Made by a program: the position numbers and the translations under genes. Below, piece by piece: positions 340-15,124 of a DNA stretch of 15,124 nt. Origin of the DNA: an uncultured Deinococcales bacterium (GTDB taxonomy: Bacteria; Deinococcota; Deinococci; Deinococcales; JAAFIG01); the NCBI GenBank assembly GCA_964244895.1, contig CAXTKV010000110.1, forward strand, positions 2,086 to 17,209. Reading direction: 5' to 3'. The notes beneath the pieces were generated by a model. It was not told the origin of the DNA, ran no database searches, and was given only the letters and a program-made list of their open reading frames with translations. Every line of letters starts with the position of its first letter. The first letter of the stretch is position 1.

Positions 340-344
340 CCGCG

Positions 345-390
345 AACACCGTCCAGCACGCGAATTCTAAACTGCGTGCTGGACGGTGTT
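345..390. repeat. Intergenic palindromic repeat, locus 1 (perfect inverted doublet; may also act as terminator between convergent genes)
   Basis: AACACCGTCCAGCACGC (345-361) / GCGTGCTGGACGGTGTT (374-390), 17/17 complementary, 12-nt spacer. Confidence 0.95.
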
Positions 391-399
391 TCTGCGATC

Positions 400-834
400 T
401 CAAACCCACCCGAGATCGTCCAGCAGGGCTTTCAAGGCTGGTTCGAGCAAGTTGTAGACGTTCTCAAAATCGTTGATATCGCCGTAAAACGGATCGGGAA
501 CCTCGGCGTCCTCGAGTAACAGTTTCGCCTTCCGGGAAACTTCAGGCCAGCGTTCCAGATCGCGCAGATTCGCCCGATCCGCCGCCAGGATCAGGTCGAG
601 ATTCGCGTCAGAATCCCTGACCTGCCGCGCGACGTGCGCAAAGCCCGCGCCGCGCTTCTCGAGCACCCGCAGCGTGCGCCCGTCCGCGCCATCGCCCGCG
701 TGCCATCCGCCCGTGCCCGCCGAATCCACCGTGAATTGCTGCTCGAGCCCGCGTTCTCGCAGCAATTTGCGGAAGATGCCTTCCGCCATCGGGCTGCGGC
801 AGATGTTCCCGGCGCAGACGAACAGCACGCTCAT
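400..834 (-). CDS. Low-molecular-weight protein-tyrosine phosphatase
   Basis: VLFVCAGNICRSPMAE P-loop (CX5R), DSAGT and DPFYG motifs. Start placed at ATG 834, which overlaps the upstream stop (ATGA). Confidence 0.93.
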   Translation of the reverse strand: MSVLFVCAGNICRSPMAEGIFRKLLRERGLEQQFTVDSAGTGGWHAGDGADGRTLRVLEKRGAGFAHVARQVRDSDANLDLILAADRANLRDLERWPEVSRKAKLLLEDAEVPDPFYGDINDFENVYNLLEPALKALLDDLGWV

Positions 835-2063
835 TCCGGCCACAAACCCTGCCCTTCGCGTTCGACGTGATACCCGGCTTTTTCCAGGTGCGCGATCACG
901 TCCAAACCGTGCTGTTCATCCCTGACCTCTAAAGCCAGTTCCACGCCGACCTTGCCCAGTGGTGCGAGCCACATCGCGCGGCGGTGGAACACGTCGATGA
1001 TGTTCGCGCCGACTTCCGCCAGGCAGTCCACCACGCGCGCCAGCGCGCCGGGGCGGTCGATCACGGAAAGTTTCAGCAACACGTAGCGTCCCTGGCGCAC
1101 CATCACCTGTTCGATCACGCGCGCCAGCAGGTTGCCGTCGATGTTGCCGCCGCACAGCACGGTGGCGACCACGTCTTCAGGCTCGAGACGGATCTTTCCG
1201 GCGATGATCGCGGCGATTCCGGCTGCGCCCGCGCCTTCGGTCACCAGCTTGGCGCGTTGCCCGCAGTGAACGATGCCGCGCGCGATCTCGTCCTCGGTGA
1301 CGGTCAGCACTTCATCTACCAGGCGCTCGATGATTTCCAGGGTGATCTCGCCGGGGCGTTTGACGGCGATGCCGTCCGCGATGGTCTGGGCGGCGCTGAC
1401 GCTGACGGGATGCCCGGCTTGCAGTGACGCGGCTACGGGTGCGCAGCCCGCCGCTTGCACGCCGATCACGCGCACGGAGGGTTTTTGCGCTTTGATGGCC
1501 GTGGCGATCCCGCCGATCAGTCCGCCGCCGCCGATGGGTACGACGATCACGCTCAGGTTCGGGAGGCGCTCTAAGATCTCGAGCCCGATGGTGCCCTGTC
1601 CGGCGATGACGCGCTCGTCGTTGAAGGCGTGAACGGTTGTGAAGCCGTGCTGTTGCGCGAGCTTCTGGGCGTGTTCGGCGGCATCGTCGAAGGTCTCACC
1701 GTGCAGCACGACCTCAGCGCCGTAGCCTCTGGTGGCTTCAATCTTGGTCAAGGGCGCGTGGCGCGGCATGACGATCACCGCGCGGATGCCGTGAACCTGC
1801 GCGGCCAGCGCCACGCCCTGCGCGTGGTTGCCCGCCGATGGCGCGATCACGCCGCGCGCGCGCTCAGTCGGGGAGAGGCTGTTGATCTTGTTGTACGCGC
1901 CCCGAATCTTGAACGATCCCGCGCGCTGCAGGCATTCGGCCTTGAGGAATACGGGTGCGCCGATGTCCCTGGAGAGCCCTTCGTCCTGGAGCGTGGGCGT
2001 CTCGGCGATCACGCCGCGCAGCGCTTCTCGGGCGGCGAGGATGTCGTTCAGGTTGACACTCAT
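831..2063 (-). CDS. ilvA: Threonine ammonia-lyase (IlvA/TdcB medium form, C-terminal ACT domain)
   Basis: LKAECLQRAGSFKIRGA PLP-lysine motif, SAGNHAQGVA, PIGGGGLIGG, CGGNID and the ACT motif DRPGALA. Confidence 0.93.
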   Translation of the reverse strand: MSVNLNDILAAREALRGVIAETPTLQDEGLSRDIGAPVFLKAECLQRAGSFKIRGAYNKINSLSPTERARGVIAPSAGNHAQGVALAAQVHGIRAVIVMPRHAPLTKIEATRGYGAEVVLHGETFDDAAEHAQKLAQQHGFTTVHAFNDERVIAGQGTIGLEILERLPNLSVIVVPIGGGGLIGGIATAIKAQKPSVRVIGVQAAGCAPVAASLQAGHPVSVSAAQTIADGIAVKRPGEITLEIIERLVDEVLTVTEDEIARGIVHCGQRAKLVTEGAGAAGIAAIIAGKIRLEPEDVVATVLCGGNIDGNLLARVIEQVMVRQGRYVLLKLSVIDRPGALARVVDCLAEVGANIIDVFHRRAMWLAPLGKVGVELALEVRDEQHGLDVIAHLEKAGYHVEREGQGLWPE

Positions 2064-2069
2064 GGACTG

Positions 2070-2099
2070 AGCTTACTTGGGTCGGAACTTAGAGGTCAG
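2070..2099 (-). promoter_or_regulatory. Putative leaderless promoter of ilvA
   Basis: Minus strand reads CTGACC-N18-TAAGCT-N6-ATG; no SD present. Confidence 0.6.
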
Positions 2100-2132
2100 T
2101 GGTCAGAGGAAAAAAGCGGGATCGCACGAGCG

Positions 2133-2190
2133 AAACACCGTCCAGGACGCACTTCTCGAGCATCGTGAATTCGTGTGTAGGACGGTCTTC
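2133..2190. repeat. Intergenic palindromic repeat, locus 2
   Basis: AAACACCGTCCAGGACGC (2133-2150), spacer containing CTCGAG (2155-2160), degenerate right arm CGTGTGTAGGACGGTCTTC (2172-2190). Confidence 0.85.
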
Positions 2191-2313
2191 TCGATGCTCG
2201 AGCCAAACCGAGCTTTGCGCCACATCCGCACGACATCCATCCCCAGTATCGCTCGAGTTTTACCTCTGACTGTTTTCCCCTGACCGTAAATTACGCCGTC
2301 CTGACCCGGAGCG

Positions 2314-2322
2314 TGCGAGAAT
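2314..2322 (+). promoter_or_regulatory. Putative extended -10 (leaderless) for the kinase-murQ operon
   Basis: TG-C-GAGAAT-N6-ATG(2329). Confidence 0.45.
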
Positions 2323-2328
2323 GCCGTA

Positions 2329-3234
2329 ATGACGGTACTCGGGATCGACGCGGGGGCTTCAAGCACGAAATGGGTGGTGCTCGACGGGAGCGGCAGGGCG
2401 CTCGAACGGGATCGGGGAACGCCGATCACCGGGCACGCCTTCGACGAAAACGGTCAGCGAGACATGCTGAACGCGCTCTCCACGGTCATCACGCGGGCGC
2501 GAGCGTACTCGCCTCGGGCGGTGGTGGCTGGAATCACGGGCCTCTCGGCAGGCTCAGAGATCGCCGGGACGCTCAAAGCGCATATCGCGACGAGCTTCAA
2601 CCTCGTGCCTGAGCGCGTCAGCGTCATGAGCGACATGGACTTGGCGTACCGGGCGCACTTCAAGTCCGCCGAGGGCATCCTGTTGTACGCCGGGACGGGC
2701 GCGATCGCGTACCACATCCGCGCGGACAACCGCGTGGTGCGGGCGGGCGGGCGAGGGTTTTTGATCGACGACGCGGGTGGCGGGTTCAGCATCGGGCAAG
2801 CGGCCCTGCGAACCGTCACGCGCTGGATGGATCTCGAGGAGGGCGCGTCGGTGGTGCAGCGCCCGTTGGCCGCCGCCATTCTGTCCGCCATCGGCTCGAG
2901 CGACTGGAACGCGATCCGGGAGCACGTCTACAGCGGTGGGCGTCGGGCGGTCGCGGCCCTCGCGCCGCGCGTCGGGCAGGCGGCTCAAAAAGGCGATCTG
3001 GTGGCGCACGAGATTCTGGTGCAGGCTGGACGAGATTTAGCGGAATTGGCGTCGGTGATGCGCGCAAAGCTCGGGGATTTGCCAATCGTGCTTTCGGGTG
3101 GCGCGCTGGAAATCAGCCCCGTGATCGAACACGCCGTGCGCGAATACCTGCCGATCAACGCGCGCTTCGCGGTTTCCAAGACCTCGAGCGCCGAGGCTGC
3201 GGCGCGCATGGCGATTCAGCTCTCCAGCCGATGA
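2329..3234 (+). CDS. BadF/BadG/BcrA/BcrD-family N-acetylglucosamine/N-acetylmuramic acid kinase (MurK-like)
   Basis: LGIDAGASST, SD, YAGTGA, RAGGRGFLIDDAGGGFSIG and LSGG motifs; overlaps the murQ start (ATGA). Confidence 0.88.
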   Translation: MTVLGIDAGASSTKWVVLDGSGRALERDRGTPITGHAFDENGQRDMLNALSTVITRARAYSPRAVVAGITGLSAGSEIAGTLKAHIATSFNLVPERVSVMSDMDLAYRAHFKSAEGILLYAGTGAIAYHIRADNRVVRAGGRGFLIDDAGGGFSIGQAALRTVTRWMDLEEGASVVQRPLAAAILSAIGSSDWNAIREHVYSGGRRAVAALAPRVGQAAQKGDLVAHEILVQAGRDLAELASVMRAKLGDLPIVLSGGALEISPVIEHAVREYLPINARFAVSKTSSAEAAARMAIQLSSR

Positions 3235-4193
3235 GCGCGGATCATCCAGATTCAATTCGGGACGCTGAGGAATCAGCCGCTCACCTCGAGCGCGACCTGG
3301 AACGGATCGCGCGTTCGGGCACGGAGAGCATCGACGCGCGCTACCCGAACCTCGATCAGTTCACTACGCCCGATCTGATCGAGGCCCTGGTTGAGGATCA
3401 ACGCAACGCCGTAGAGGCCGTCGTGCGCGCCGCCAGTGCGATCTCGAGCGCCGTGGATCAGGCCGTCGTGCGGCTCTCGCGCGGCGGACGGTTGATCTAC
3501 GCTGGTGCGGGCACGAGCGGCAGGTTGGCCTTTCTGGACGCGGCGGAACTGACCCCGACCTTCTCGTGGCCCGCCAGCCGGGCGTTGGTCTGCATGGCGG
3601 GCGGTCAGGATGCAGTCTTCAAAGCCGTCGAAGGCGCAGAAGATCATCTCGAGGCTGGACGCGCGGATGTCCTGGCGCGGAACCCCGCGCAGGACGACGT
3701 GATCATCGGTATCGCCGCCAGCGGCACGACCCCTTACGTGCTGGGCGCTTTTATCGCCGGAAAATCCGTCGGTGTGCTGACCATCGGGATCGCCAACAAC
3801 GCGGACACGCCCGTGCTGATGGCCTGCGATCTGCCCATCGCTCTGCTGACCGGGCCGGAAGTGATCTCCGGTTCGACGCGCCTCAAGGCGGGCAGCGCGC
3901 AGAAGATGGCGCTCAACGCGCTGTCTTCCGGCATCATGGTTCGTCTGAACAAGGTCTACGGCAACCTGATGGTGGACTTGCAGGCCACCAACGCCAAGCT
4001 GATTCAGCGCGCCATCCGCTTGACCACCACCGCGACGGGCTCGAGCATTGATGACGCGCGAACGGCGCTCGAAGCCTGCGGCTGGAACGTCAAGACCGCG
4101 ATCGTGATGCTCAAAGCTGAATTGGGCGCGACCGCTGCCCGAGAACGCCTGGATCGCGTTCAGGGCAGCGTCCGATTGGCGCTCGAGCAGTAA
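3231..4193 (+). CDS. murQ: N-acetylmuramic acid 6-phosphate etherase
   Basis: GRLIYAGAGTSGRLAFLDAAELTPTF, GIAASGTTPYV, TGPEVISGSTRLKAGSAQK, GNLMVDLQATNAKL. Confidence 0.96.
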   Translation: MSADHPDSIRDAEESAAHLERDLERIARSGTESIDARYPNLDQFTTPDLIEALVEDQRNAVEAVVRAASAISSAVDQAVVRLSRGGRLIYAGAGTSGRLAFLDAAELTPTFSWPASRALVCMAGGQDAVFKAVEGAEDHLEAGRADVLARNPAQDDVIIGIAASGTTPYVLGAFIAGKSVGVLTIGIANNADTPVLMACDLPIALLTGPEVISGSTRLKAGSAQKMALNALSSGIMVRLNKVYGNLMVDLQATNAKLIQRAIRLTTTATGSSIDDARTALEACGWNVKTAIVMLKAELGATAARERLDRVQGSVRLALEQ

Positions 4194-4242
4194 ATGCGCT
4201 CGCCCAGACCACCGATCTGTTCGCATTACATGATGACAATGC

Positions 4243-4285
4243 CTCGAGCTTCAGCCCGAGACGCGAGCCATGCTCGAGCTTCAGC
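4243..4285 (+). repeat. 13-bp direct repeat CTCGAGCTTCAGC x2 (30-bp period)
   Basis: Exact copies at 4243-4255 and 4273-4285. Confidence 0.7.
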
Positions 4286-4303
4286 GCTCACAGAAGTTCC
4301 ATT

Positions 4304-4442
4304 AGACTTCCTGTGAACGTGATCGAACGCGTCCCGAAGGAAGCTTAGGGACAAGCCCTACAAAACCTCCGTCCTGTAGGGGCAACCTTCATGGTTGCCC
4401 TCGCGTGAACACGTTCTCAAGACGGACTTTCCCAGGAGGTCT
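4304..4442. mobile_element. Putative MITE (139 bp) with imperfect TIRs and 3-bp ATT target duplication
   Basis: Left end AGACTTCCTGTGAA (4304-4317); right end TTCCCAGGAGGTCT (4429-4442), 12/14 complementary; ATT on both sides (4301-4303, 4443-4445); no ORF inside. Confidence 0.6.
4376..4401 (+). repeat. GTAG-type REP sequence
   Basis: GTAG followed by GGGCAACC-TTCAT-GGTTGCCC (8-bp perfect stem). A partial oppositely oriented REP, TAGGGACAAGCCCTAC, lies at 4346-4361. Confidence 0.75.
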
Positions 4443-4505
4443 ATTGGTTGCGCTGCGCCTTGAGAAAACCTTTCTGCGCTTCAGACCTGATGCGTAATGC
4501 CGTAA

Positions 4506-4545
4506 GAACACCGTCCAGGACGCGAATCGAATAACGCGTCCTGGA
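4506..4545. repeat. Intergenic palindromic repeat, locus 3
   Basis: GAACACCGTCCAGGACGCG (4506-4524) and CGCGTCCTGGA (4535-4545). Confidence 0.9.
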
Positions 4546-4590
4546 GCGCGAACGGCCCTTCAGGTGCTGTCCTGTGAGAACGAACCCAAC

Positions 4591-6228
4591 TCACGGAACG
4601 GGGTTGAGGGTCACGTCCTGCCCGTACAGCGGCAAGCTGGTCACGGTCACGGAACGCTGACCGACCAGATCGCCGGAATCCTCGGTGCCGTTCTTGTTGA
4701 CATCCACGCTGACGCGCACCGTGTACGTACCGGGTGAGATGTCGCTCAGGCTGTACGCGCCCGTGCTGCGTCCCGGCTGCAGGCTGGACTTGACGGTCTT
4801 GAGGACGGTGGCACCGTTCAGGACGGTCGTGGTCACGTTGTAACCCGACGCCGCATCCGGCCCGGACAGCGCCAGATCGGCCCGCACGAGCCCGTTGCCG
4901 GTCTGATCGTCGCGCCCTGAGCTACCCAGATCCTGCGCGGTCTCGAGCAATCGGGCAAAGATCAGGTCGGGGCTCGAGAGGCCGTTCGAGCGCAGCAGGG
5001 CCGCCACACCCGCCACGGTCGGTGAGCTGAACGACGTGCCGGATTCCTGGCCGATGCTCGCGCCCAACAGTACCCAGACGTTCCGCCCCGGCGCGACGAG
5101 ATCGAGCTTCGGGCCGTAATCCGAAAAGTTGGATCGACCGAGCGCGTTCTCGATCGATCCGACCGCCAGCACGTAGCGGTTCAACGCCGGGTACGCGATT
5201 GAACCCGCGACGTAACCCGCCGATGCCGCGTCGTTGCCGGAAGCCGCGACCAACACGGCTCCGGCCTTGTAGGCTTTCTCCAGAGCCGCATCGATGACGG
5301 GATCGGTCGCGCTCGAGCAAAGGTTGCCGCTCACCAGGCAGAAACTCATGTTGATGACCTTCGCGCCGACATCGATCGCGGTGTCCAGCGCAGCGGCGAT
5401 CGTGGCGCTGGTGCCACCAGCCGGGGCGCTACCGCCCGGATCGGTGAAAACCTTGATCGGCACGACCTGAACGCCCTGCCAGGTCACGCCCGCGATGCCC
5501 AGGGCGTTGTCGGTGGTGGCCGCCACGATGGACGCCACCGCGCCGCCGTGCGTGTCCTCGGGGTAAGTGCTGTTGCCGGGGAATTCGGTCGGTTGGTTGT
5601 CGCCGTTGCCCGGATCGAGCCACAGCCCGGATTTGGGCGTCGGCAGGGCGATGCGCCCCGAGATATCGGTCTGGTTGGCGTTGTATCCGTCGTCCAGCAC
5701 GGCCACCAGCACGCCCGCTGCGCCCTTCTGGGCATTCCAGGCGGCGGGCGCACCGATCAGGCTGAGGTTGGTCTGCTGCGCGAACTTTGGATCGTTCGGC
5801 GTCGCCAGGCGCTTGTACCGGTAATTTGGCCCGATGGCTTCGACGTTCGGGTCGTTCTCGAGCTGCGCCCGCACGGATTCCTCGCTGCCCGGATCGACCT
5901 CGAGAAGGCTGATTGACCCGAGCTGTCGCTCGGCGCGCACCGACGCTGGGCGCGCGCTCAGCGTCCCGACCCGGCCATCGCGGTAACGCACGACCAGCTC
6001 ACCGGGCACGCGCGCTGCGCCGTCACCGGGCACGCGCGCAGGAGTCTGAGCGCTCGAAATCCCGGCGCTGGCCGCCTTTGCATTCAGATCTGCGCGCATC
6101 AAGCGCCCGCTGACGACCGCCTCCGCAGCCGGAGGCTTGACTGGCTGACACGCCGTGACCGCGACGATCAACAGCGCACTCAGGAAGGGTTTCAAACGTC
6201 CGGTCGGCGCGCGAGAGGTGTCAAACAT
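4591..6228 (-). CDS. S8 (subtilisin-like) serine protease, predicted lipoprotein, with C-terminal beta-sandwich domain
   Basis: Lipobox VTAC; propeptide VPGELVVRY; catalytic triad VAVLDDG / HGGAVA / GTSFSSP; oxyanion ASGN; C-terminal DVNKNGTEDSGD Ca-binding-like loop. Confidence 0.93.
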   Translation of the reverse strand: MFDTSRAPTGRLKPFLSALLIVAVTACQPVKPPAAEAVVSGRLMRADLNAKAASAGISSAQTPARVPGDGAARVPGELVVRYRDGRVGTLSARPASVRAERQLGSISLLEVDPGSEESVRAQLENDPNVEAIGPNYRYKRLATPNDPKFAQQTNLSLIGAPAAWNAQKGAAGVLVAVLDDGYNANQTDISGRIALPTPKSGLWLDPGNGDNQPTEFPGNSTYPEDTHGGAVASIVAATTDNALGIAGVTWQGVQVVPIKVFTDPGGSAPAGGTSATIAAALDTAIDVGAKVINMSFCLVSGNLCSSATDPVIDAALEKAYKAGAVLVAASGNDAASAGYVAGSIAYPALNRYVLAVGSIENALGRSNFSDYGPKLDLVAPGRNVWVLLGASIGQESGTSFSSPTVAGVAALLRSNGLSSPDLIFARLLETAQDLGSSGRDDQTGNGLVRADLALSGPDAASGYNVTTTVLNGATVLKTVKSSLQPGRSTGAYSLSDISPGTYTVRVSVDVNKNGTEDSGDLVGQRSVTVTSLPLYGQDVTLNPVP

Positions 6229-6299
6229 GTTAAATCATCCTAATCGAGCACCTGAGCAATCACTGAAGAAATCCATCAGTTCATGATGCAGAACCCCGG

Positions 6300-6350
6300 C
6301 ACCGTGCTGGACGCGACTACTTGAGCCTAAAGAATCGCGTCCTGGACGGT
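6300..6350. repeat. Intergenic palindromic repeat, locus 4
   Basis: ACCGTGCTGGACGCGA (6301-6316) / TCGCGTCCTGGACGGT (6335-6350), 14/16 complementary. Confidence 0.88.
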
Positions 6351-6430
6351 TCATCTGCAATTCTCAGCACGAGGCTCGAGATGGATGTCCCAATCCTTCA
6401 TTTTTAGAAAGACATCCCCTCGCGCGTTTG

Positions 6431-6439
6431 TGCTATGGT
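6431..6439 (+). promoter_or_regulatory. Extended -10 promoter of the cold-shock gene
   Basis: TG-C-TATGGT, about 100 nt upstream of the ATG; implies a 5' UTR of about 90 nt. Confidence 0.55.
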
Positions 6440-6536
6440 TTCCAAATCCGACACAGACAGTGGTTCGGAAACCCGGCAGAGGCCGGAAGTATCGGTTCTG
6501 GTGCGAACCAAAACCGCGTTACAGAGAGGCAGTACA

Positions 6537-6746
6537 ATGGCAGAAGGTACAGTCAAGTGGTTCAACGGTGAAAAAGGCTTCGGATTCATCACGCCCAGCG
6601 ACGGCGGCAAGGATGTGTTCGTTCACTTCTCGGCGATCAAGGGGAGCGGCTACCGCAACCTCGAGGAGAACCAGCGCGTCTCCTACGACGCCGAAGAGGG
6701 CAAGAACGGTAAGGGCCCGCAGGCCGTCAACGTCACCGTTCTCTAA
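6537..6746 (+). CDS. csp: Cold-shock protein (CspA family), 69 aa
   Basis: [15 protein letters not shown] (RNP1) and VFVHFSAI (RNP2); GAGAGG SD at 6524-6529. True start is the internal ATG 6537 of the ORF-track ORF. Confidence 0.96.
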
Positions 6747-6762
6747 ATCGAACTCAATCGCA

Positions 6763-6788
6763 AAGAACCACCCCTCGGGGTGGTTCTT
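6763..6788. terminator. Intrinsic, likely bidirectional terminator
   Basis: AAGAACCACCC-CTCG-GGGTGGTTCTT between the convergent csp and membrane-protein genes. Confidence 0.8.
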
Positions 6789-6842
6789 CATGTTCTGGTT
6801 CTGCTCGAGCCTCACGGCCCTCGAATGTTGCTGGGTCGAGCG

Positions 6843-7736: not shown

Positions 7737-7861
7737 GGCAGATATTGTGACAGCTCTTTGGTGCTGGAATGTCCCAGGTCGAACAGTTCCCAGGTTCCCC
7801 AGCTCGGTTTTTCTCGAGCATGTGGGCTGAGGGAGCTCTTCTTTTGGAGACGCGATCATCG

Positions 7862-7909
7862 GAACACCGTCCAGCACGAGATTCTTGAAATGCGTCCTGG
7901 ACGGTGTTC
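7862..7909. repeat. Intergenic palindromic repeat, locus 5
   Basis: GAACACCGTCCAGCACG (7862-7878) / CGTCCTGGACGGTGTTC (7893-7909), 16/17 complementary. Confidence 0.95.
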
Positions 7910-7970
7910 TTCATACTGCTCGCGAAAGCCTCTCGCTCGAGTGCGAACCGTTCCGCACGGCACGGTTTCC

Positions 7971-7999
7971 TTGACACCCCTCGCCATGACCGCTAGAAT
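7971..7999 (+). promoter_or_regulatory. Sigma70/SigA promoter for tRNA-His (probably continuing into tRNA-Leu and tig)
   Basis: TTGACA (7971-7976)-N17-TAGAAT (7994-7999). Confidence 0.88.
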
Positions 8000-8013
8000 C
8001 CTGTGGCTTTCGT

Positions 8014-8091
8014 GGTGGGTGTAGCTCAGTTGGTTAGAGCGCCGGTCTGTGGCACCGGAGGTCGAGGGTTCAAGACCCTTCACCCACCCCA
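8014..8091 (+). tRNA. tRNA-His(GTG)
   Basis: G-1, acceptor stem GTGGGTG/CACCCAC, C73, encoded CCA; anticodon arm CCGGT-CTGTGGC-ACCGG; T-loop TTCAAGA. Confidence 0.97.
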
Positions 8092-8227
8092 CTCAAGCAC
8101 GGTGATCTGCACGTCGAAACCTGGCGCGTATCGTTTGGCTCCTCTCGGTTCAGGCGGGTTTTTCGATCACGGTTCGGCCAAGATTTCAACACAGAAGGAT
8201 GTTCAGACGAACGACGGTTCAACGCGG

Positions 8228-8314
<87 letters not shown>

Positions 8315-8339
8315 TGAACCTGGCTGGTGGAGGATTCCT

Positions 8340-9563
8340 GTGGCAGAACTGCTCGAACGCAACGGCAACAAGGTCAAGTTCAAAGTCATCATTCCCGCCG
8401 ACGAGGTCAACCAGGCCTTCACCGGCGTGGTCAACGCGTTGGCGCAACAGGTTCGGATTGACGGCTTCCGGCCCGGCAAGGCTCCCAAGAGCGTGATCGA
8501 GAAGCGCGTCGGCAAGGACTACGTGGTGAGTGAGGTGCGCGAATTTCTGGTCGGTCAGGCGTACCCGAAAGCCGTCAAGGAACTCGAGTTGATCCCGGTT
8601 TCCGCCAACGTCACGCCCGGCGATCTGGCGGAAAACGCGCAGTTCGAGTTCACGGTGGATGCCGAGAACTACCCGGAAGTCACGCTGCCCGCCTGGGAAT
8701 CGTTCAGCATCGAGGCCAAACCGCTCGAGATCACCGATGAGAACGTTGATCAAGCCATTTCTGAACTGCGCGAACGCCAGGCGACCTACGATCCGGTCGA
8801 ACGCGAAGCGCAAGCCGAAGACCTGGTGACCGTGGAAATTTTGGAAGGCGAAGACGCCGGCCAGACGTACCCGATTTACCTCGAGCGCAGCGATGCGAAC
8901 GTGCGAAACGCTCTGCTGGGTCAGGTCGCGGAAGCCCAGGTGGAAGTTCCCATGTCCGGCGACGACACGGACGGGCAGACCCTGAAAGTCAAGATCGTGG
9001 ACATCAAGGCCAAGGTCGTGCCCGCCCTGGACGATGATTTCGCTAAAACCATGCAACTCGAGACGCTGGACGAACTGAAACTCAAGGTGCGCGAGGACCT
9101 TGAAGCGCGCGCCAAGCAGCAGACCGAAAACAACCGCAAGGACGAGTTCGTCGGCAAGCTGGCCGAAGGCATGAGCGCCGAAGTGCCGCAAGCATTGATC
9201 GATCGTCGCCGCGAAGCCCTAGAAGCCGACCTGGGGCGCGACCTGGAACGCCAGGGCGTGACCCTGGAAAGCTACAAGGAATACCTGAAAACCGAAAATA
9301 AGCTCGAGGAATTCGACAAGGATCTGGACAAATCAGCCGTGGACGCCGTGCGCCGCGACTTGGCGCTCGAGCAACTGACCGAGCAGCAGGGCACGCAACT
9401 GACGGATGACGAATGGCGGGCTGCGCTCGAGAATTATGCCCGCACCAACCGCGTCAGCATCGCCCGCCTGCGCGAACTGATGGGCGAGGAAGGGCTCTCG
9501 AACTTCAAGGTCGTCGTGACGCGCGACAAAGCGCTCGATGCCGTCCTCAGCAAGCTTTCTTGA
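8340..9563 (+). CDS. tig: Trigger factor
   Basis: GFRPGKAP ribosome-binding signature and LDDDFAK; GTG start 8340 with GGAGGA SD (8329-8334); typical position after tRNA-Leu. Confidence 0.95.
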   Translation: MAELLERNGNKVKFKVIIPADEVNQAFTGVVNALAQQVRIDGFRPGKAPKSVIEKRVGKDYVVSEVREFLVGQAYPKAVKELELIPVSANVTPGDLAENAQFEFTVDAENYPEVTLPAWESFSIEAKPLEITDENVDQAISELRERQATYDPVEREAQAEDLVTVEILEGEDAGQTYPIYLERSDANVRNALLGQVAEAQVEVPMSGDDTDGQTLKVKIVDIKAKVVPALDDDFAKTMQLETLDELKLKVREDLEARAKQQTENNRKDEFVGKLAEGMSAEVPQALIDRRREALEADLGRDLERQGVTLESYKEYLKTENKLEEFDKDLDKSAVDAVRRDLALEQLTEQQGTQLTDDEWRAALENYARTNRVSIARLRELMGEEGLSNFKVVVTRDKALDAVLSKLS

Positions 9564-9578
9564 AATTTGAACGCTCGC

Positions 9579-9607
9579 AAAATCCCCCGAAGATGGGGGA
9601 TTTTTTT
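9579..9607 (+). terminator. Intrinsic terminator of tig
   Basis: AAAATCCCCC-GAAGAT-GGGGGATTTT followed by TTT. Confidence 0.92.
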
Positions 9608-9767
9608 GATACTGATGCTCAATTCTTGCGATCAGCTCGGGATAAACCTTCGTCGTCACAGTTTCTTTTGCAAGGTTCTGTAGACTGATGCGAAGCGCAC
9701 AACACAAAAGCGCGCAGGCTGAGGACAGGCGGTTGATCTGCTCGCTCGACCCCGGAAAGGATCACCG

Positions 9768-10064
9768 ATGAGTCACCGCGTTCCAGTGGAACCCACCGAT
9801 GTGCTCGAGCAAACCCTGTCATCGCTCGAATTGAGCGAGGCGCTCGTGTTGCGCCTCAGAACCGGGCTGGTGGACGGCAGGCGGCACACGCTGCGCGAGG
9901 TCGGCGAATTCCTGGGCACGACCCGCAGCGAAGCCCGCACGCTGGAATGGAGCGGCTGGCGCAAGCTGGCGCGCTTGGCGAGCAGCAGCAACGCTTCGCG
10001 CGAGGCCGTGCAACTGCTCTTGCGCCGTTGCACGCGACCCGTGCTGGTTCGACCGCTCAACTGA
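9768..10064 (+). CDS. Stand-alone sigma70 region-4 (HTH) domain protein, 98 aa
   Basis: LVLRLRTGLVDGRRHTLREVGEFLGTTRSEARTLE...RKL matches the primary-sigma region 4 pattern (VLKLRKGLIDGREHTLEEVG...TRERIRQIE...RKL); AAAGGA SD; own terminator. Confidence 0.8.
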   Translation: MSHRVPVEPTDVLEQTLSSLELSEALVLRLRTGLVDGRRHTLREVGEFLGTTRSEARTLEWSGWRKLARLASSSNASREAVQLLLRRCTRPVLVRPLN

Positions 10065-10078
10065 ATTGTGCAACGTTG

Positions 10079-10104
10079 AACCGACGCCTCGAGCGTCGGT
10101 TTTT
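10079..10104 (+). terminator. Intrinsic terminator (CTCGAG spans the loop)
   Basis: AACCGACGC-CTCGA-GCGTCGGTT followed by TTT. Confidence 0.8.
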
Positions 10105-10131
10105 GGTGCGACAATATTGATCGGGCAAAAA

Positions 10132-10179
10132 ACGCGTTCTGGACGGTGTGTGTCCCAAGAAACGCCGCCTGGGACGCGT
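10132..10179. repeat. Intergenic palindromic repeat, locus 6 (arms in opposite order)
   Basis: ACGCGTTCTGGACGGTGT (10132-10149) then ACGCCGCCTGGGACGCGT (10162-10179). Confidence 0.8.
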
Positions 10180-10184
10180 CTTTC

Positions 10185-11027
10185 TTAGATCGGCTCGAGC
10201 TCAAAACCGCCGCGTTCGCGAAGTTTGAATGTGCCCCACGAATACCGCGGATCGTGCGGCGTGGCGATCACGAAACCGCGCTCGAACCACTCCGGGAACA
10301 GGCGCTTGCGAACCTCCAGGGTGGTCACCGGGTACAGGTCGAAACCCATGATGTACGGGAAGGGCGCGTGATCGAAGGTCGGCAGCAAATCCGCCGTGTA
10401 GACCAACCCGGCGCCCTCGGACTCCAGGATCACCGCTTGCTGACCCAGGTTGTGACCCGGCGCGGGCACGACGCGCAGACCGGGCAAGATTTCCGTCTCG
10501 CCCTCGAGCGCGTCGAACAACCCGGCCTCGAGAACGGGTGCGATGTTGTGCGCGATGTAGCTGGCGCGGTTGCGCTCGTGGGTGTGCGTGGCGTCGTGCA
10601 GTTCCTGCGCCTGCACCACGTAGCGCGCGTTCGCGAAGGTCGGCCTGAGATCCATGGTCGTGTTGCGGCCCGCGTGATCGAAATGCAGGTGCGTGTTGAT
10701 CACGATGTCAACATCTGAGGGCTCGAGCCCCAACGACCGCAGACCGCCGAAGACGGTTTCGTCCCGATCCACGGCGAATTGCTGCTCGAATTTCTCGCCG
10801 GATTTGTCGTCCATGCCGGTTTCGATCAGGATGTTCTTGCCGTCCAGTTGAATCAGCATCGGGTTGATCCGCAGCGCGATCCGGTTCGACGCGTCCGGCG
10901 CGTTCAGTTTTTCCCAGAGCACCCTGGGAACCGTGCCGAACATGCTGCCGCCGTCCAGCCGGAACGTGCCATCGGTCAGCGAGTACGCGTCGGCTCGGCC
11001 AATTTTGAGGTGTTTGATCCAGGTCAT
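10185..11027 (-). CDS. Metallo-beta-lactamase-fold hydrolase (YtnP-like)
   Basis: DGTFRLDGGSMFGTVP, NTHLHFDHAG (HxHxDH), PGHN, ADLLPT, MGFDLYP, HDP. Confidence 0.92.
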   Translation of the reverse strand: MTWIKHLKIGRADAYSLTDGTFRLDGGSMFGTVPRVLWEKLNAPDASNRIALRINPMLIQLDGKNILIETGMDDKSGEKFEQQFAVDRDETVFGGLRSLGLEPSDVDIVINTHLHFDHAGRNTTMDLRPTFANARYVVQAQELHDATHTHERNRASYIAHNIAPVLEAGLFDALEGETEILPGLRVVPAPGHNLGQQAVILESEGAGLVYTADLLPTFDHAPFPYIMGFDLYPVTTLEVRKRLFPEWFERGFVIATPHDPRYSWGTFKLRERGGFELEPI

Positions 11028-11033
11028 GCGAGG

Positions 11034-11042
11034 AGTCTACCA
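11034..11042 (-). promoter_or_regulatory. Extended -10, leaderless promoter of the MBL hydrolase
   Basis: TG-G-TAGACT-N6-ATG(11027). Confidence 0.65.
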
Positions 11043-11159
11043 ACGCGCTGCGCGGTTCTCGAGCGAGTCTCGAGACGTTCCGCGTCGATCCAGAGCCGAG
11101 TTTTGTTTCTCGAGATCGGAGTCGTTCCAGGCTCGTCTCGGGTACGGATGAAACCTCGA

Positions 11160-11207
11160 GAATACCGTCCAGCACGCATATCTTATTTCGCGTGCTGTGC
11201 GGCGCTC
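11160..11207. repeat. Intergenic palindromic repeat, locus 7
   Basis: GAATACCGTCCAGCACGC (11160-11177, sharing its first G with CTCGAG 11155-11160) and degenerate GCGTGCTGTGCGGCGCTC (11190-11207). Confidence 0.85.
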
Positions 11208-11216
11208 GTGTGCAGC

Positions 11217-11222
11217 TAGACT
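11217..11222 (+). promoter_or_regulatory. -10 element, leaderless promoter of the P-loop kinase
   Basis: TAGACT-N6-ATG(11229). Confidence 0.55.
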
Positions 11223-11228
11223 CGAGGC

Positions 11229-11777
11229 ATGAGATTGTTTTTCCTCTACGGCCCGCCCGCAGCCGGGAAACTGACGGTGGCTCGGGCGCTGGCGTCACTC
11301 ACGGGCGCGGCAGTCTTTCACAACCACGTCTCGCTCGACTACGCGCTGCAACTTTTTAACCGGGACGCGCCGGAATTCGGGGCTTTCGTCGAGAAATTGC
11401 GCCTGGAAACTTTCGCGTTCTGCGCCAGCCACGACCGCGATCTGATTTTCACCTTCGTCTACGCCCACAAGACCGACGAGGCCATCGTGCGCCGCACGGT
11501 CGCCGCGGTCAGTGCCTTCGAGGGTGCAGAAATCGTGTTCGTCCACCTGACCTGCGACCCGGAAGAATTGCTGCGCCGCGTCTCATTGCCGTCTCGGGGA
11601 GAACACCAGAAAATCTCCGATCCAGCCGTACTCGAGGACTTGTTCAAACGTTTTGACCTGTTCTTGAGCATCCCGTTCGTGGACAGTTTGAGCTTCGATA
11701 CGACCCGCACGCCACCCCAAGAGATCGCGCTCGAGATTCTTCGGGCAATCACAGAAGACCGTCCAGCACGCGAATAA
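11229..11777 (+). CDS. P-loop NTPase / shikimate-kinase-like AAA-family protein
   Basis: FLYGPPAAGKLTVA Walker A; FHNH; LIFTFVY; lid motif ELLRRVSLPSR. Confidence 0.85.
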   Translation: MRLFFLYGPPAAGKLTVARALASLTGAAVFHNHVSLDYALQLFNRDAPEFGAFVEKLRLETFAFCASHDRDLIFTFVYAHKTDEAIVRRTVAAVSAFEGAEIVFVHLTCDPEELLRRVSLPSRGEHQKISDPAVLEDLFKRFDLFLSIPFVDSLSFDTTRTPPQEIALEILRAITEDRPARE

Positions 11778-11801
11778 AGAACATCCTCCGGGACGGTGTT
11801 C
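11754..11801. repeat. Palindromic repeat, locus 8 (overlaps the CDS end)
   Basis: GAAGACCGTCCAGCACGCGA (11754-11773) and compact form GAACATCCTCCGGGACGGTGTTC (11779-11801). Confidence 0.85.
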
Positions 11802-11913
11802 CGGCGCACGTAGTCCGGGTGACGTTCAAACTGGGAAACTTCCACGACAATGCGCCTGAGAACGCTGTCCTCGAGCCACCACATTCAAGCTCGAGGCCAC
11901 GAAAGGATCAACC

Positions 11914-12579
11914 ATGAGCCTACGCGAACGGATGTATGAGCTTCGCACGCCCGAAGAAGTGGACGCTTTCGTCACCGAAAACCCGACCGCCGCGATCTTC
12001 AAGGCCGGAACCTGCCACAAAACCATGCAGGGCTGGGGCAACGTCGAAAAGCTCCTGCGCGACCGCGACGATGTCAGCGTCGGCATCATTCGCGTCGTCG
12101 AGGCCCGCCCCGCCAGCAACCGCGTGGCCGAACGCACCGGCATCACGCACCAGAGCCCGCAACTGATCCTGTTCCGCGATGGTCAACCGAAGTTCGACCT
12201 GGACAACTGGGACATCACGCCCGAGAACCTCGAGCCGAAGTTCGGCGCGTACCTGCCGGACGCGACCACCGGCGAAACGCCGAAGGCCGGAGCGAAATCC
12301 AACCTCGAGCCGTACAAGCGCCTGCTGGACGCGTACATTGCGGGTCAGATCGGCGAGCAGCAATTCCAGGCGTACTACCTGGAAACCTTCCGCAACGACG
12401 CGAACCTTCGCGCCCAGGAAGAATTCGACGTGCTCAACAGTCTCTTCGGCAACCCCGACGAGCACCACATCCACGCCGGAGCGATCATGCAACTCGAGGC
12501 GGTGGCCGTGCGGGCGGGCAGCGTCGCGCCGTTGGTGGACCGCGCCAGAGCCCTGCGCGAGCAGTTGAACGCGCTCTGA
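11914..12579 (+). CDS. abxC: Monothiol bacilliredoxin BrxC (YtxJ) domain fused to a colicin-immunity-like helical domain (Deinococcus AbxC type)
   Basis: FKAGTCHKT monothiol motif and RPASNRVAERTGITHQSPQLILF; C-terminal EPYKRLLDAYIAGQI...FRNDANLR...LFGNPD; AAAGGA SD. Confidence 0.85.
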   Translation: MSLRERMYELRTPEEVDAFVTENPTAAIFKAGTCHKTMQGWGNVEKLLRDRDDVSVGIIRVVEARPASNRVAERTGITHQSPQLILFRDGQPKFDLDNWDITPENLEPKFGAYLPDATTGETPKAGAKSNLEPYKRLLDAYIAGQIGEQQFQAYYLETFRNDANLRAQEEFDVLNSLFGNPDEHHIHAGAIMQLEAVAVRAGSVAPLVDRARALREQLNAL

Positions 12580-12601
12580 GTTGAACCCCAGATTGGAACC
12601 G

Positions 12602-12630
12602 ACCGGGAAGCCGTGTGGCTTCCCGGTTTC
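12602..12630 (+). terminator. Intrinsic terminator
   Basis: ACCGGGAAGCC-GTGT-GGCTTCCCGGT followed by TTC. Confidence 0.75.
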
Positions 12631-12642
12631 TGTATCCCTTCA

Positions 12643-12707
12643 GAACACCGTGCTGGACGGTGTTCCTGCGATACTCGAGAATGCCGTCTGGAACGGTGTT
12701 TCTCGAG
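12643..12707. repeat. Intergenic palindromic repeat, locus 9 (two compact 23-mers)
   Basis: GAACACCGT-GCTGG-ACGGTGTTC (12643-12665); GAATGCCGT-CTGGA-ACGGTGTTT (12679-12701), bracketed by CTCGAG at 12674 and 12702. Confidence 0.9.
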
Positions 12708-12739
12708 GGTATGACTGTTGGGATCGCTGAAGCGCTCGT

Positions 12740-12765
12740 GCAGGGGCGAACGGTCTGTTTGTCCT
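12740..12765 (+). repeat. Decayed GTAG-type REP
   Basis: GCAGGGGCGAAC-GGTCT-GTTTGTCCT; 9-bp stem with three G-T pairs, tag reads GCAG. Confidence 0.4.
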
Positions 12766-12844
12766 CGGGCGGCAACGATGCCTCGAGATCAAGCCTTCAG
12801 CGAGAGAAATCCCGAGAAGATTGAACTAGGCTCGAGCGTGCGCG

Positions 12845-13504
12845 TCACTCGAGGCCGTCCACGTCGGTCAGGAACGCCCCCAGCAAATACTTTCGCGGAC
12901 CGCGCTTCTTCAAATATCTGGCCAGAACATCGTCCAGTTCGCGCTGCAAGGCTTTGGCATCCTCGATGCCCAAATAGACCGCGTGCCAGCCGGAAACCAC
13001 TGCCGGGCCTTCCGCCATCAAATCCGCCCAGGCGCGCCCGGAAGCGGACGCGATCTCGAGGTAGACGCTGCCGTTGGGTGCAATTGCGGTCACCACGCCC
13101 CAGTCCTGCTCGACGAAACGTTCCTCGCGGTACAACCGATCCAGGCCGCGCCTGAACAGCGCCTGATGGAGCGCCCAGTTCTGCCCGCTGATGCGTTCGG
13201 GCGGGTGCGTCCGGAACGGAATGAAGAACGCATCGGCCACCGTGCGGTAATGCCGGATTGCACGTCCCGCTCGCGCTTCAGTGCGCGTGATCTCGATCAG
13301 GTTCAGACCCTCGAAGCGTTTGACGATCTTGTAGAGCGCACTGACGGTCATCTCGAGGCTGGTCGCGGCCTGATTGATGGTGTTTTCCTGGCCCGTGAAT
13401 TCCGCCAGGATGCGCAACAGTGCGCGATCCGTCAGCAATTCGCACGCCTGCGCATCTTCGATGCGATACCAGTTTTGAGTCGTCCGGGAGCCTGGTTCCT
13501 TCAT
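12845..13504 (-). CDS. Winged helix-turn-helix (ArsR-like) protein
   Basis: TINQAATSLEMTVSALYKIVKRFEGLNLIEI...GRAIRHYRT HTH plus wing; C-terminal LGIEDAKALQRELDDVLARY helix; divergent from the GNAT gene. Confidence 0.8.
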   Translation of the reverse strand: MKEPGSRTTQNWYRIEDAQACELLTDRALLRILAEFTGQENTINQAATSLEMTVSALYKIVKRFEGLNLIEITRTEARAGRAIRHYRTVADAFFIPFRTHPPERISGQNWALHQALFRRGLDRLYREERFVEQDWGVVTAIAPNGSVYLEIASASGRAWADLMAEGPAVVSGWHAVYLGIEDAKALQRELDDVLARYLKKRGPRKYLLGAFLTDVDGLE

Positions 13505-13556
13505 GGGCTATCTCTGGAAGTAGATCCTAGCTCAGACTGTCCCCGGAGAACCAGAC

Positions 13557-14072
13557 ATGACGGAGATTATACGAATCACGAACCGCACCCGAGAACAACA
13601 CATTCGGGAACTCGAAACCGAATACTTCAGCTGGGTCGACGCTCAACTTCAGGCCGAATTTCAGATCGCGCTCGACACGCCAAAAATGATCGCCAACGAT
13701 CTCGAGCACCTGGAAATGTACCTCCCACCGACCGGAGGGCTGTTCCTGGCCGAACTGGATCGAACGCCGGTCGGCATGATCTTTTTGACCCAACTGCGTC
13801 ACGGCGTCGGACAGATCAGGCGGATGTACGTTCGGGATGCGTACCGCCGTCGCGGAATCGCGAGAGCCCTGTTCGAGGCCGCCATCCAACAGGCGCGCCA
13901 GATCGGGTACGTTCAGTTGCTCCTGGAAAGCCCGATGTCCTGGCGCGACGCGCACGCCCTGTACCAATCGCTCGGCTTTGAAGCTGTAGCGATGTACCCC
14001 GAAAGCGAAGTCCCACAGCACCTGCGAAAATACTGGGTTTTCATGCAATTGACGCTTCGAGACACGGACTGA
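13557..14072 (+). CDS. GNAT-family N-acetyltransferase
   Basis: IRRMYVRDAYRRRGIARALF motif A and AHALYQSLGF motif B; GGAG SD. Confidence 0.9.
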   Translation: MTEIIRITNRTREQHIRELETEYFSWVDAQLQAEFQIALDTPKMIANDLEHLEMYLPPTGGLFLAELDRTPVGMIFLTQLRHGVGQIRRMYVRDAYRRRGIARALFEAAIQQARQIGYVQLLLESPMSWRDAHALYQSLGFEAVAMYPESEVPQHLRKYWVFMQLTLRDTD

Positions 14073-14129
14073 AACTGGCCCGAACGCGTATGATTTCCAG
14101 ATTCCATCAGGCTCGAGACGGAGGACTCC

Positions 14130-15092
14130 ATGACCCAGACGACCGAAGCACCCAAACCCAAAGCCGGAGGAGACGCCGGAATCCAGGCCGGAATGATCTG
14201 GATGAACGGCCAGGTCGTCCCCCAGGAACGCGCCGTGGTCAGCGTCCTGACGCACGCCCTGCACTACGGCACCAGCGTCTTCGAGGGCGTGCGCGCCTAC
14301 GAAACCCCGCGCGGCGCGGCCATCTTCCGATTGGCGGACCACACCAAACGCCTCTTCGACAGCGCCCACGTCATGCGCATGCCGATTCCGTTCAGCCAAG
14401 AAGAAATCAGCCAGGCGCAACTCGAGGTCGTGCGCGTCAACGCGTACAAATCCTGCTACATCCGACCCCTGGTGTGGCGCGGCGGTCAGACCCTCGGCGT
14501 CAACCCGATGCCCTGCCCCGTCGAGGTCATGGTCGCAGGCTGGCACTGGGGCGCGTACCTCGGCGAGGACGCCATCCAGAAGGGCGCACGATTGATGACG
14601 ACCGCCTGGACGCGCCTTCCGGCGGGTGCCATGCCCGGCAAGGCCAAAGCGGGCGGCAACTACGTCAACAGCGCCCTGGCGCGCATGGACGCCGTCAGCT
14701 CCGGCTTCGACGAAGGCCTGCTATTGGACCAGAACGGCTTCATCGCCGAAGGCACCGGCGAGAACTTCTTTTTCATCAACAAAGGTGTCGTGTACGCCAT
14801 CAGCCGCAGCGTCAACCTGACCGGCATCACCCGCGACAGCGTCATCCAGATCTGCCGCGACATGGGACTCGAAGTCGTCGAAACCATGGCCACCCGCGAG
14901 GAACTCTACTGCGCCGACGAGGTCTTCATGACCGGAACCGCCGCCGAAGTCACGCCCGTCAGCGAGATCGATTACCGCAAGATCGGAACGGGCGTGTCCG
15001 GCAAGCTGGCCCTCGAGATCAGGAAGCGTTACCTGGAAGCCTGCACCGGGCAGTTACCGCAGTACGATTCCTGGCTGAGTTACGCGGATTGA
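14130..15092 (+). CDS. ilvE: Branched-chain amino acid aminotransferase
   Basis: HALHYGTSVFEGVRAY, YIRP, KAKAGGNYVNS (PLP lysine), EGTGENFF, GITRDSV, ADEVFMTGTAAEVTP; GGAGGA SD. Confidence 0.96.
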   Translation: MTQTTEAPKPKAGGDAGIQAGMIWMNGQVVPQERAVVSVLTHALHYGTSVFEGVRAYETPRGAAIFRLADHTKRLFDSAHVMRMPIPFSQEEISQAQLEVVRVNAYKSCYIRPLVWRGGQTLGVNPMPCPVEVMVAGWHWGAYLGEDAIQKGARLMTTAWTRLPAGAMPGKAKAGGNYVNSALARMDAVSSGFDEGLLLDQNGFIAEGTGENFFFINKGVVYAISRSVNLTGITRDSVIQICRDMGLEVVETMATREELYCADEVFMTGTAAEVTPVSEIDYRKIGTGVSGKLALEIRKRYLEACTGQLPQYDSWLSYAD

Positions 15093-15099
15093 GACTTAA

Positions 15100-15116
15100 G
15101 AACACCGTCCCAGACG
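15100..15116 (+). repeat. Intergenic palindromic repeat, locus 10 (partner arm probably beyond the window)
   Basis: GAACACCGTCCCAGACG, starting 8 nt after the ilvE stop. Confidence 0.8.
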
Positions 15117-15124
15117 AGGTTTAA

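Follow-up and report, generated by a model that had tools for sequence, protein, structure and literature searches.

The DNA analysed here (the window) is a stretch of 15,124 nucleotides from an uncultured Deinococcales bacterium, taken from contig CAXTKV010000110.1 (G000:C110:2086-17209 in our numbering) and terminating at the contig end. It contains ten loci of a short palindromic repeat, the subject of this work, and the genes that flank them are ordinary. One encodes MurQ, whose best matches in the plasmid collection are in Deinococcus (58-60%), and the window has no match in Rfam except two tRNAs. The host genome (G000) comprises 5,124,934 bases in 328 contigs (62.7% G+C, 91% complete) and is the sole genome of its genus among the 19 family genomes compared. 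Genes were called with our own simple hexamer caller, and called genes make up 80% of the genome. All ten loci listed in a preliminary description of the window were found in their places, and 10 of the 16 non-overlapping spacers are occupied. With up to two mismatches, ACCGTSCWGSACG matches the window 45 times compared with 4.3 ± 2.5 times in shuffled sequences, none of 200 shuffles reaching 45. The loci, and a weaker site inside a gene, are given below with arm scores in bits where noted; a strand is assigned to one of them.

344..391: pair 25 bp apart (core centres 355 and 380) that follows closely on the stop at 339, the genes on either side being convergent; 27.6 and 27.1 bits.
2133..2190: pair with cores at 2144 and 2179 (35 bp), between divergent genes; CTCGAG lies within the spacer.
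4506..4553: strong left arm (core 4517) whose partner, 25 bp off, has decayed; between convergent genes.
6297..6354: pair with cores at 6308 and 6343 (35 bp) and decayed outer flanks, between divergent genes; 11.6 and 13.1 bits.
7862..7909: near-perfect pair with cores at 7873 and 7898 (25 bp), upstream of tRNA genes.
10129..10185: tail-to-tail pair with cores at 10140 and 10171 (31 bp, a minor spacing class); 18.5 and 12.3 bits.
11160..11207: left arm (core 11171) with CTCGAG ahead of it and a decayed partner at 11196 (25 bp).
11754..11801: pair with cores at 11765 and 11790 (25 bp); the left arm lies in coding sequence, with the TAA stop of the open reading frame (ORF) 11229-11777 falling in the spacer.
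12643..12701: two self-complementary singlets with cores at 12654 and 12690 (36 bp).
15100..15124, plus strand: left arm (core 15111) that follows the stop at 15092 and is truncated where the contig ends.
4808..4830: weak singlet within a subtilase gene (core 4820), which may be a partial site or chance; 12.0 and 9.6 bits.

The family is built on a constant palindromic core, CGT-N5-ACG, flanked by GAACAC on the outer side and by C(A/G)WWT on the inner; where both sides of a core carry the outer flank, the result is a 23-bp singlet palindrome. The preliminary description had given the core as CGT-CCAG[C/G]-ACG. It is palindromic as described, but only CGT-N5-ACG is invariant, with N5 being CCAGC (1,021), CCAGG (353), CCTGG (253), CCCAG (156) or others. 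Most loci are inverted doublets, as had been noted, with the exceptions of the two singlets at 12643 and the tail-to-tail pair at 10132, but their spacers do not vary continuously from 10 to 21 nt, since the 11-bp cores are separated by 14/15 or 24/25 nt. Genome-wide, 1,641 of the 1,810 distances between neighbouring cores of at most 45 bp fall into two classes, 911 at 25/26 bp and 730 at 35/36 bp, with 50 at 30/31 bp and 29 at 40/41 bp. The two main classes are one helical turn apart, so the two dyads of a pair would lie on opposite faces of the helix. Arrays are not formed, only 24 of 3,029 loci having three or more cores. The spacers are nearly all distinct (640 of 680 in 25-bp left-right pairs and 161 of 161 in 35-bp left-right pairs), have an A+T content of 57-60% in a genome of 63% G+C, show a loose directional consensus and are not self-complementary.

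In the 25-bp pairs, the two arms share sequence variants far above chance from positions -9 to +2 (CCTGG-CCTGG, for example, occurs 40 times versus 5.8 expected), but not at +3, +5 or -10, and in the 35-bp pairs such sharing is weak. Template-switch correction of inverted repeats is a mechanism proposed in the literature (PMC5941160). Arm sharing, together with a co-varying central base in the orthologous locus described below, would fit fold-back template switching between arms. Orientation of the loci along the genome is only weakly autocorrelated (z of 2.2-2.6), giving little strand polarity, and a G·T/A·C bias by skew, as a sign of replication polarity, was not seen.

The preliminary description had predicted thousands of copies, and these are present: the exact pattern ACCGTCCAG[CG]ACG occurs 1,268 times in the genome, and a position matrix finds 5,645 arms of at least 14 bits, compared with 31 in the reversed genome. 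The 5,645 arms collapse into 4,839 cores and these into 3,029 loci, which lie on almost all contigs and total ~124 kb, or 2.4% of the genome. More than 90% of the loci are intergenic; in the proposed count of intergenic versus coding copies, 8.3% of the arms of at least 14 bits lay in called genes, falling to 4.4% at 20 bits. A 16-base pattern has 1,111 matches in the host and 0-4, the chance level, in each of 40 relatives, while in 18 family genomes a looser pattern has 0-10 matches each, and only 41 arms of at least 14 bits were counted in 1.9 Mb of DNA from relatives. Among the matches listed in a scan of genome contigs, three were found, all unrelated and lacking the outer flank, and a scan of metagenome contigs gave one match, from a close relative. 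Two scans of viral contigs and one of plasmids gave none. Hence a high-copy, lineage-specific and mostly intergenic family, as had been described, is borne out, and it arose within one genus. No description of the repeat was found in the literature searched; most subscription papers, ISfinder and the supplements of PMC3733652 lay outside that search and may hold a catalogue entry.

The loci occupy 470 of 582 convergent, 1,404 of 2,201 tandem and 345 of 612 divergent spacers. They are most frequent within 20 bp of stop codons, are depleted from the 60 bp that precede starts, and show no dependence of orientation on gene direction. The number of loci per spacer is close to one at any spacer length, the mean being 0.70-0.89 and the variance 0.25-0.40 up to 800 bp (0.87 and 0.31 in spacers of 200-400 bp). 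Occupancy is 0.59 (0.71-0.75 expected) when another locus lies within 500 bp and 0.88 (0.77 expected) when the nearest other locus is 1,250-1,500 bp away, and the coefficient of variation of the gaps is 0.60, versus 0.66 ± 0.014 in the null, that is, spacing is even. The distribution is interrupted by 39 nearly element-free contigs (486 kb), where 6% of the genes have a match in the sampled relatives compared with 20% on element-rich contigs. Element-free islands (G000:C5:1-55057, C15:14045-39883 and 19 more stretches of at least 9 kb, 289 kb in total) likewise have few genes in common with the sampled relatives and retain 1.6-8 copies of CTCGAG per kb; they are likely recent acquisitions from CTCGAG-rich kin.

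CTCGAG itself is very abundant, with 21,883 copies genome-wide (~13-fold over base composition) and 4.7-7.0 per kb in the sampled relatives. It is a family-wide, HIP1-like palindrome that is older than the repeat. CTCGA precedes 17-25% of the arms that start with GAA, versus 3% in controls. CTCGAG on both sides of an element is not in excess, however (8 versus 17.6 expected), and the side on which it occurs is unrelated to spacer orientation (88 versus 79). Tandem pairs of 7 bp are a further intergenic feature (AAGCCGC 88, AGCCGCG 86, AGCCTCG 48 and ACCTCTG 29 genome-wide), often in expanded spacers that also hold an element. The window has 7-bp tandem repeats at 2085-2108 and 2260-2285, a set distinct from the paired sites.

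Outside the arms, A/T content oscillates with a period of 11.5 bp at 20-80 bp from the core and 10.75 bp at 45-100 bp. For 3,896 arms the power of this wave at 20-80 bp is 0.74, compared with 0.023 ± 0.012 in a jitter null. Its phase is set by the nearest core and is identical in 25- and 35-bp pairs. The wave is seen also in coding flanks and survives removal of CTCGAG and of the heptamer repeats; neither free CTCGAG sites nor stop codons without an element show it, and it was not clearly seen at 454 lone singlets. On our reading, the period of more than 10.5 bp would reflect underwound chromosomal DNA. A phased G/C motif of 130 bp marks the DNA that is wrapped by gyrase (PMC6379681). By analogy with gyrase (PMC6379681), waves of this kind would mark DNA lying on a protein surface.

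Sites within genes provide evidence of how the family arises. Coding DNA contains 335 arms of at least 14 bits compared with 98-112 after synonymous shuffling, and 49 compared with 3-6 at 23 bits. Nine element-bearing genes were aligned to their family orthologues, a tenth having none. In PheT (36-bp pair) and MiaA (34-bp pair) there is no insertion or deletion relative to 11 of 11 orthologues each, and the ancestral codons are kept in the spacer. The left arm in PheT (G000:C80:1859-4261, residues 58-77) replaces a cysteine that is present in all 11 orthologues, while synonymous changes alone suffice to give the right arm from one relative. The sites in GntR and AlaS similarly show no insertion or deletion relative to 5 of 5 orthologues each, that in FadN relative to 3 of 5, and that in a phosphotransferase relative to the two g2 genomes. 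PurD, an FAD oxidase and an LpxD-like gene have gained one, two and at least three codons, far below the size of the element. In MiaA and PurD an ancestral CTCGAG has been turned into the CTGGAC of the core. A wider check by our own tally covered 37 in-gene sites, of which 35 could be aligned (including eight of the nine genes above): 16 show a net change of zero codons, some of them being natural motif matches, nine have gained 1-3 codons, nine have gained 4-18 and one shows a loss.

The in-gene sites also fill gaps between intergenic ones. For 48 strong examples the median distance to the nearest intergenic site is 1,125 bp, versus 579 bp from random coding positions (p=7.5e-7), a difference that could be inflated by unrecognised gene fusions. 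The bare core is in excess in coding DNA (3,490 copies; the in-frame controls N2 and N8 have 2,551 and 2,579, respectively), and this excess is absent in two relatives. Across 592 aligned orthologues, from which the nine chosen genes were dropped, the site-encoded peptides are modestly raised, V[LQP]DG occurring 42 times versus 26 and V[LQ]D 168 times versus 116, and 26 of 30 gains of V[LQP]DG lack a nearby insertion or deletion. The proteome has been shifted by the sites.

The geometry of the pairs, the flank wave and the lack of an RNA signal together make it probable that a DNA-bending or DNA-wrapping protein recognises the repeat, as a dimer, in double-stranded form. The sites are likely to be a genome-wide docking code rather than a jumping repeat. 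Three features expected of a docking site are present, namely a palindromic double-stranded site, helical phasing and a flank wave. More tentatively, and a little short of an even chance, we propose that the docking sites were gained arm by arm under selection and serve an intracellular chromosome-organising complex, a function favoured because of the long wave, with its period above 10.5 bp, and the phase-locked pairs. In this model, a candidate dimer would bind each CGT-N5-ACG core, two dimers would sit on opposite helical faces 25 or 35 bp apart, and the protein would bend or wrap ~60-90 bp of DNA on each side. Sites would be gained arm by arm, by substitution in near-matches and by a fold-back (template switch) that copies one arm to the other. 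With about one site per 1-2 kb being favoured by selection, sites would gather in permissive DNA just after stop codons and, where no spacer is near, in genes. The function is the least certain part; the complex might organise or constrain the supercoiled chromosome as a nucleoid or topoisomerase-recruiting platform.

The sites for MatP (matS), ParB (parS), SlmA and Noc are palindromic, double-stranded and read by dimeric proteins that shape the chromosome. They number tens to a few hundred copies and are regionally placed, whereas here ~4,800 cores are found on almost all contigs, in phase-locked pairs and with little strand polarity. The gyrase wrapping motif resembles the flanks described here in having symmetric phased A/T-G/C flanks with a period of ~10.75 bp over ~50 bp on each side (PMC6379681). 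However, as described in that article, the gyrase motif is degenerate, without a fixed core, and centred on the cleavage site, while in the present family it is the nearest sequence-specific core that sets the phase, with a period of 11.5 bp close to it.

Several observations weigh against the proposed chromosome-organising role or against formation in place. No histone folds were found in the genome, and searches of it for candidate proteins found no cognate protein. Eleven highly expressed basic proteins of unknown function were scanned against Pfam, ten of which have no family; one such protein was rejected as the cognate protein as it is common to 12 of 18 relatives. A core chromosome function would not be expected to be confined to a single genus. 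A role in transcription-driven supercoiling might predict that occupancy tracks codon bias, and the flat occupancy across quintiles of codon bias of the upstream gene (0.71-0.81) therefore counts against it. Even spacing, the proteome imprint and scarcity in accessory DNA would fit a drive by DNA uptake equally well. In addition, syntenic spacers with an element exceed their counterparts in relatives by a median of 72 bp (n=83, range -540 to +377), compared with 2 bp for those without one (n=87), and 14 of 45 tight gene junctions have opened and now hold an element in added DNA. Since the added length is variable and often greater than the element, insertion or expansion accompanies many intergenic sites. 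The same holds for the nine in-gene sites with net gains of 4-18 codons, mostly in linkers, which indicate that added DNA accompanies many sites, and the in-gene sites that survive are a subset left by selection. The family may thus have had a mobile origin and been domesticated later.

Comparison of orthologous spacers, which had been suggested for detecting filled and empty sites, gave a mixed answer: places are kept at the one locus compared at 80% identity and at five window sites compared at ~93%, and element-bearing spacers are longer than in distant relatives. At the former locus, the position of the pair and its 25-bp spacing are conserved. Of the 14 spacer bases 9 differ, and the central base shows the same difference in the two arms. 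In the relative of run X1 (~93% identical), the loci at 6300, 11160, 11754, most of 12643, and 15100 are spanned by aligned pieces with 2-7 gap letters and 7862 lies in a piece with 35, while breaks coincide with 4506 and 10132, and the listed pieces do not reach 345 and 2133. A second stretch gave pieces with 28-77 gap letters of unplaced position. At window positions 12691-12742 the run X1 contig has ~47 extra bases, close to the size of a 25-bp pair.

Three other explanations were considered. That the pairs act mainly as RNA hairpins, either as terminators or as 3' stabilisers, would agree with the peak of loci within 20 bp of stop codons, with the folding of the pair at 344-391 (-34.9 kcal/mol) and with the lower frequency of intrinsic terminators in convergent spacers shorter than 150 bp when an element is present (7.5% versus 23%). 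It is nonetheless very improbable. G·U and A·C mismatches on the transcribed strand of the stems occur in a ratio of 851:943, compared with 32:2 in true terminators of the same genome, indicating no selection for RNA pairing, and a hairpin requires neither a fixed loop length nor a flank wave. The preliminary description had already argued against a pure terminator role, and the occupied divergent spacers and lack of orientation bias relative to genes agree. Classic G+C hairpins with A/T tails are found in two element-free spacers of the window, at 6765-6792 and 9578-9608. That description instead favoured a non-autonomous element resembling the doublets of repetitive extragenic palindromes (REPs) known as REPINs, moving as a hairpin unit. 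Its argument that the family is not of the GTAG type holds, as the arm logos read GAACAC-CGT-N5-ACG with no GTAG, as does its expectation that any partner protein is encoded outside the window. Movement as a hairpin unit is not supported, given the two-phase spacing, the near-unique spacers, the in-gene arms built on ancestral codons, the lack of any preference for G·U pairs on the transcribed strand, the orthologous loci that keep their place, and the failure to find either target-site duplications or, in a 91% complete genome, Y1 or IS110 genes; however, insertion may have contributed because the intergenic gaps with elements are longer than in relatives. The remaining form of this explanation, a REPIN-like element or miniature inverted-repeat transposable element (MITE) spread by a lost or unassembled transposase or nuclease and then decayed, with the in-gene matches as rare survivors, appears improbable. 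It would account for the longer spacers and for the REP-like placement across convergent, tandem and divergent spacers with a peak after stop codons, the one-sided CTCGA could be a one-sided target, and the genome is only 91% complete. On the other hand, target-site duplications of 2-8 bp gave only tiny counts among 1,176 tests per class, and one at CTCGAG was rejected, as CTCGAG is neither on both sides above chance nor on a fixed side. Local hopping was likewise rejected because variants are not shared along contigs, and inward-facing lone arms are not enriched (61 versus 60, 61 and 74). A search for a RAYT/Y1, GIY-YIG, DUF559 or IS110 mobiliser gene flanked by copies established none: Y1_Tnp (PF01797) and IS110 had no matches in the genome (the control profile matched in 6 of 14 genomes), the single GIY-YIG match is a 613-residue ORF read as UvrC, and one weak match to the DUF559 profile is better assigned to DUF2726. 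The genome has 11 tyrosine-recombinase matches, and no paralogue family stood out for flanking elements. One candidate was a DUF559-like ORF (G000:C10:18776-19216) that lies between two elements, encodes a putative nuclease of 147 residues and has atypical codon use. It is present in 2 of 364 genomes of the phylum and has 275 homologues elsewhere, sporadic in Actinomycetota and Bacteroidota. It was rejected as mobiliser since a paired site is missing from all five of the homologue loci inspected, where the best single arm scores 14.8 bits, and flanking by elements on both sides is common (570 of 4,425 genes). Insertion alone also leaves unexplained the pairs around ancestral codons, the filling of gaps and the phased coding flanks. 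The family is like REPs, REPINs and bacterial interspersed mosaic elements (BIMEs) in being intergenic, near stop codons, arranged in inverted doublets, of very high copy number and lineage-specific (PMC3733652, PMC6379681); BIME-2 elements are strong gyrase sites, and CGTC REPs likewise have no dedicated transposase (PMC3733652, PMC6379681). Unlike GTAG REPs, it has no unpaired terminal GTAG tag, RAYT, shared spacers or clusters. The CGTC REPs (Di Nocera families 1-4) are described as having a terminal unpaired CGTC, an 8-9-bp stem, a 4-5-nt loop and a CCA tail (PMC3733652, whose main text has no instance of 'deinococc'). Here CGTC is instead inside a palindromic core and is not followed by such a stem, loop and tail. 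Spacer length fixed by helical phase and formation in place within genes further distinguish the family from REPs and REPINs, as the absence of target-site duplications and of a constant internal sequence does from MITEs.

The closest evolutionary parallel is with the DNA uptake sequence (DUS) of Neisseria and the uptake signal sequence (USS) of Haemophilus. In this explanation, which we regard as unlikely but the strongest of the three, the repeat is a 'self' signal for DNA uptake or transfer, a surface receptor prefers fragments with a paired, bendable site, and repeated transformation drives sites into the core genome until there is about one per fragment. DUS and USS are reported to spread by mutation and recombination rather than insertion, to be spaced more evenly than random, to be under-represented in coding DNA, to occur often as intergenic dyad pairs and to alter the proteome (PMC2817400), and to be absent from recently acquired genes (PMC2397512). 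The present family matches this pattern in its in-place origin, even spacing, scarcity in accessory DNA (including the element-poor contigs with few shared genes) and proteome imprint. Further likenesses are the thousands of copies at about one per kb, the enrichment between genes and after stop codons, and, for USS, flanking A/T tracts (PMC2817400, PMC2397512, PMC7811141). ComEC is present in the genome, as are eight matches to the ComEA-like HHH_3 domain compared with 1-5 in 18 relatives; these lie on contigs C225, C240, C206, C179, C115 and C39, and several are small secreted-looking proteins with high codon bias. However, relatives with 4-5 HHH_3 matches have no sites, and no receptor was found. 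Known uptake sequences, as described in the same articles (PMC2817400, PMC2397512), are short and non-palindromic, a single copy is enough, and their pairs are RNA terminators, whereas the core here is palindromic, the pairs are locked at 25/26 or 35/36 bp with no signature of a terminator or of RNA-pairing selection, and the flank wave extends for 60-90 bp at a period of more than 10.5 bp. Coding arms amount to 4-8% here versus 34.5-65% for DUS and USS (PMC2817400). The host also lies outside the Proteobacteria.

The family therefore lacks the defining traits of GTAG and CGTC REPs, of the REPIN-RAYT system, of MITEs and of terminators; it evolves like DUS and USS and differs from them in architecture. 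Abundant intergenic palindromes are usually filed as REP-like mobile DNA, and here DUS-like evolution in place is combined with a wrapping footprint, behind which there is likely either a new protein that organises the chromosome or a self-recognition code for uptake, which would be the third to have arisen independently. With slightly less confidence than in the proposed chromosome-organising role, we suggest that the sites may constitute a sequence-addressed DNA-wrapping system new to bacteria, in which a protein complex evolved within one genus would dock on ~3,000 phase-locked paired sites and wrap 150-200 bp at each, like positioned chromatin units. If so, selection or drive for one unit every 1-2 kb would be strong enough to write sites into essential genes and alter their amino acids. 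Were the sites read by the competence machinery instead, they would represent the first system of uptake sequences outside the Proteobacteria, with a palindromic paired architecture. The family offers a defined probe for two questions, the origin of abundant site families in bacteria, and whether REP-like repeats are protein-docking codes or transposon relics.

Two other genes in the window have unusual domain compositions. An ORF of 92 residues at 9786-10064 contains a lone sigma-70 region 4 domain, and the product of 11914-12579 is a BrxC bacilliredoxin fused to a colicin-immunity-like domain.

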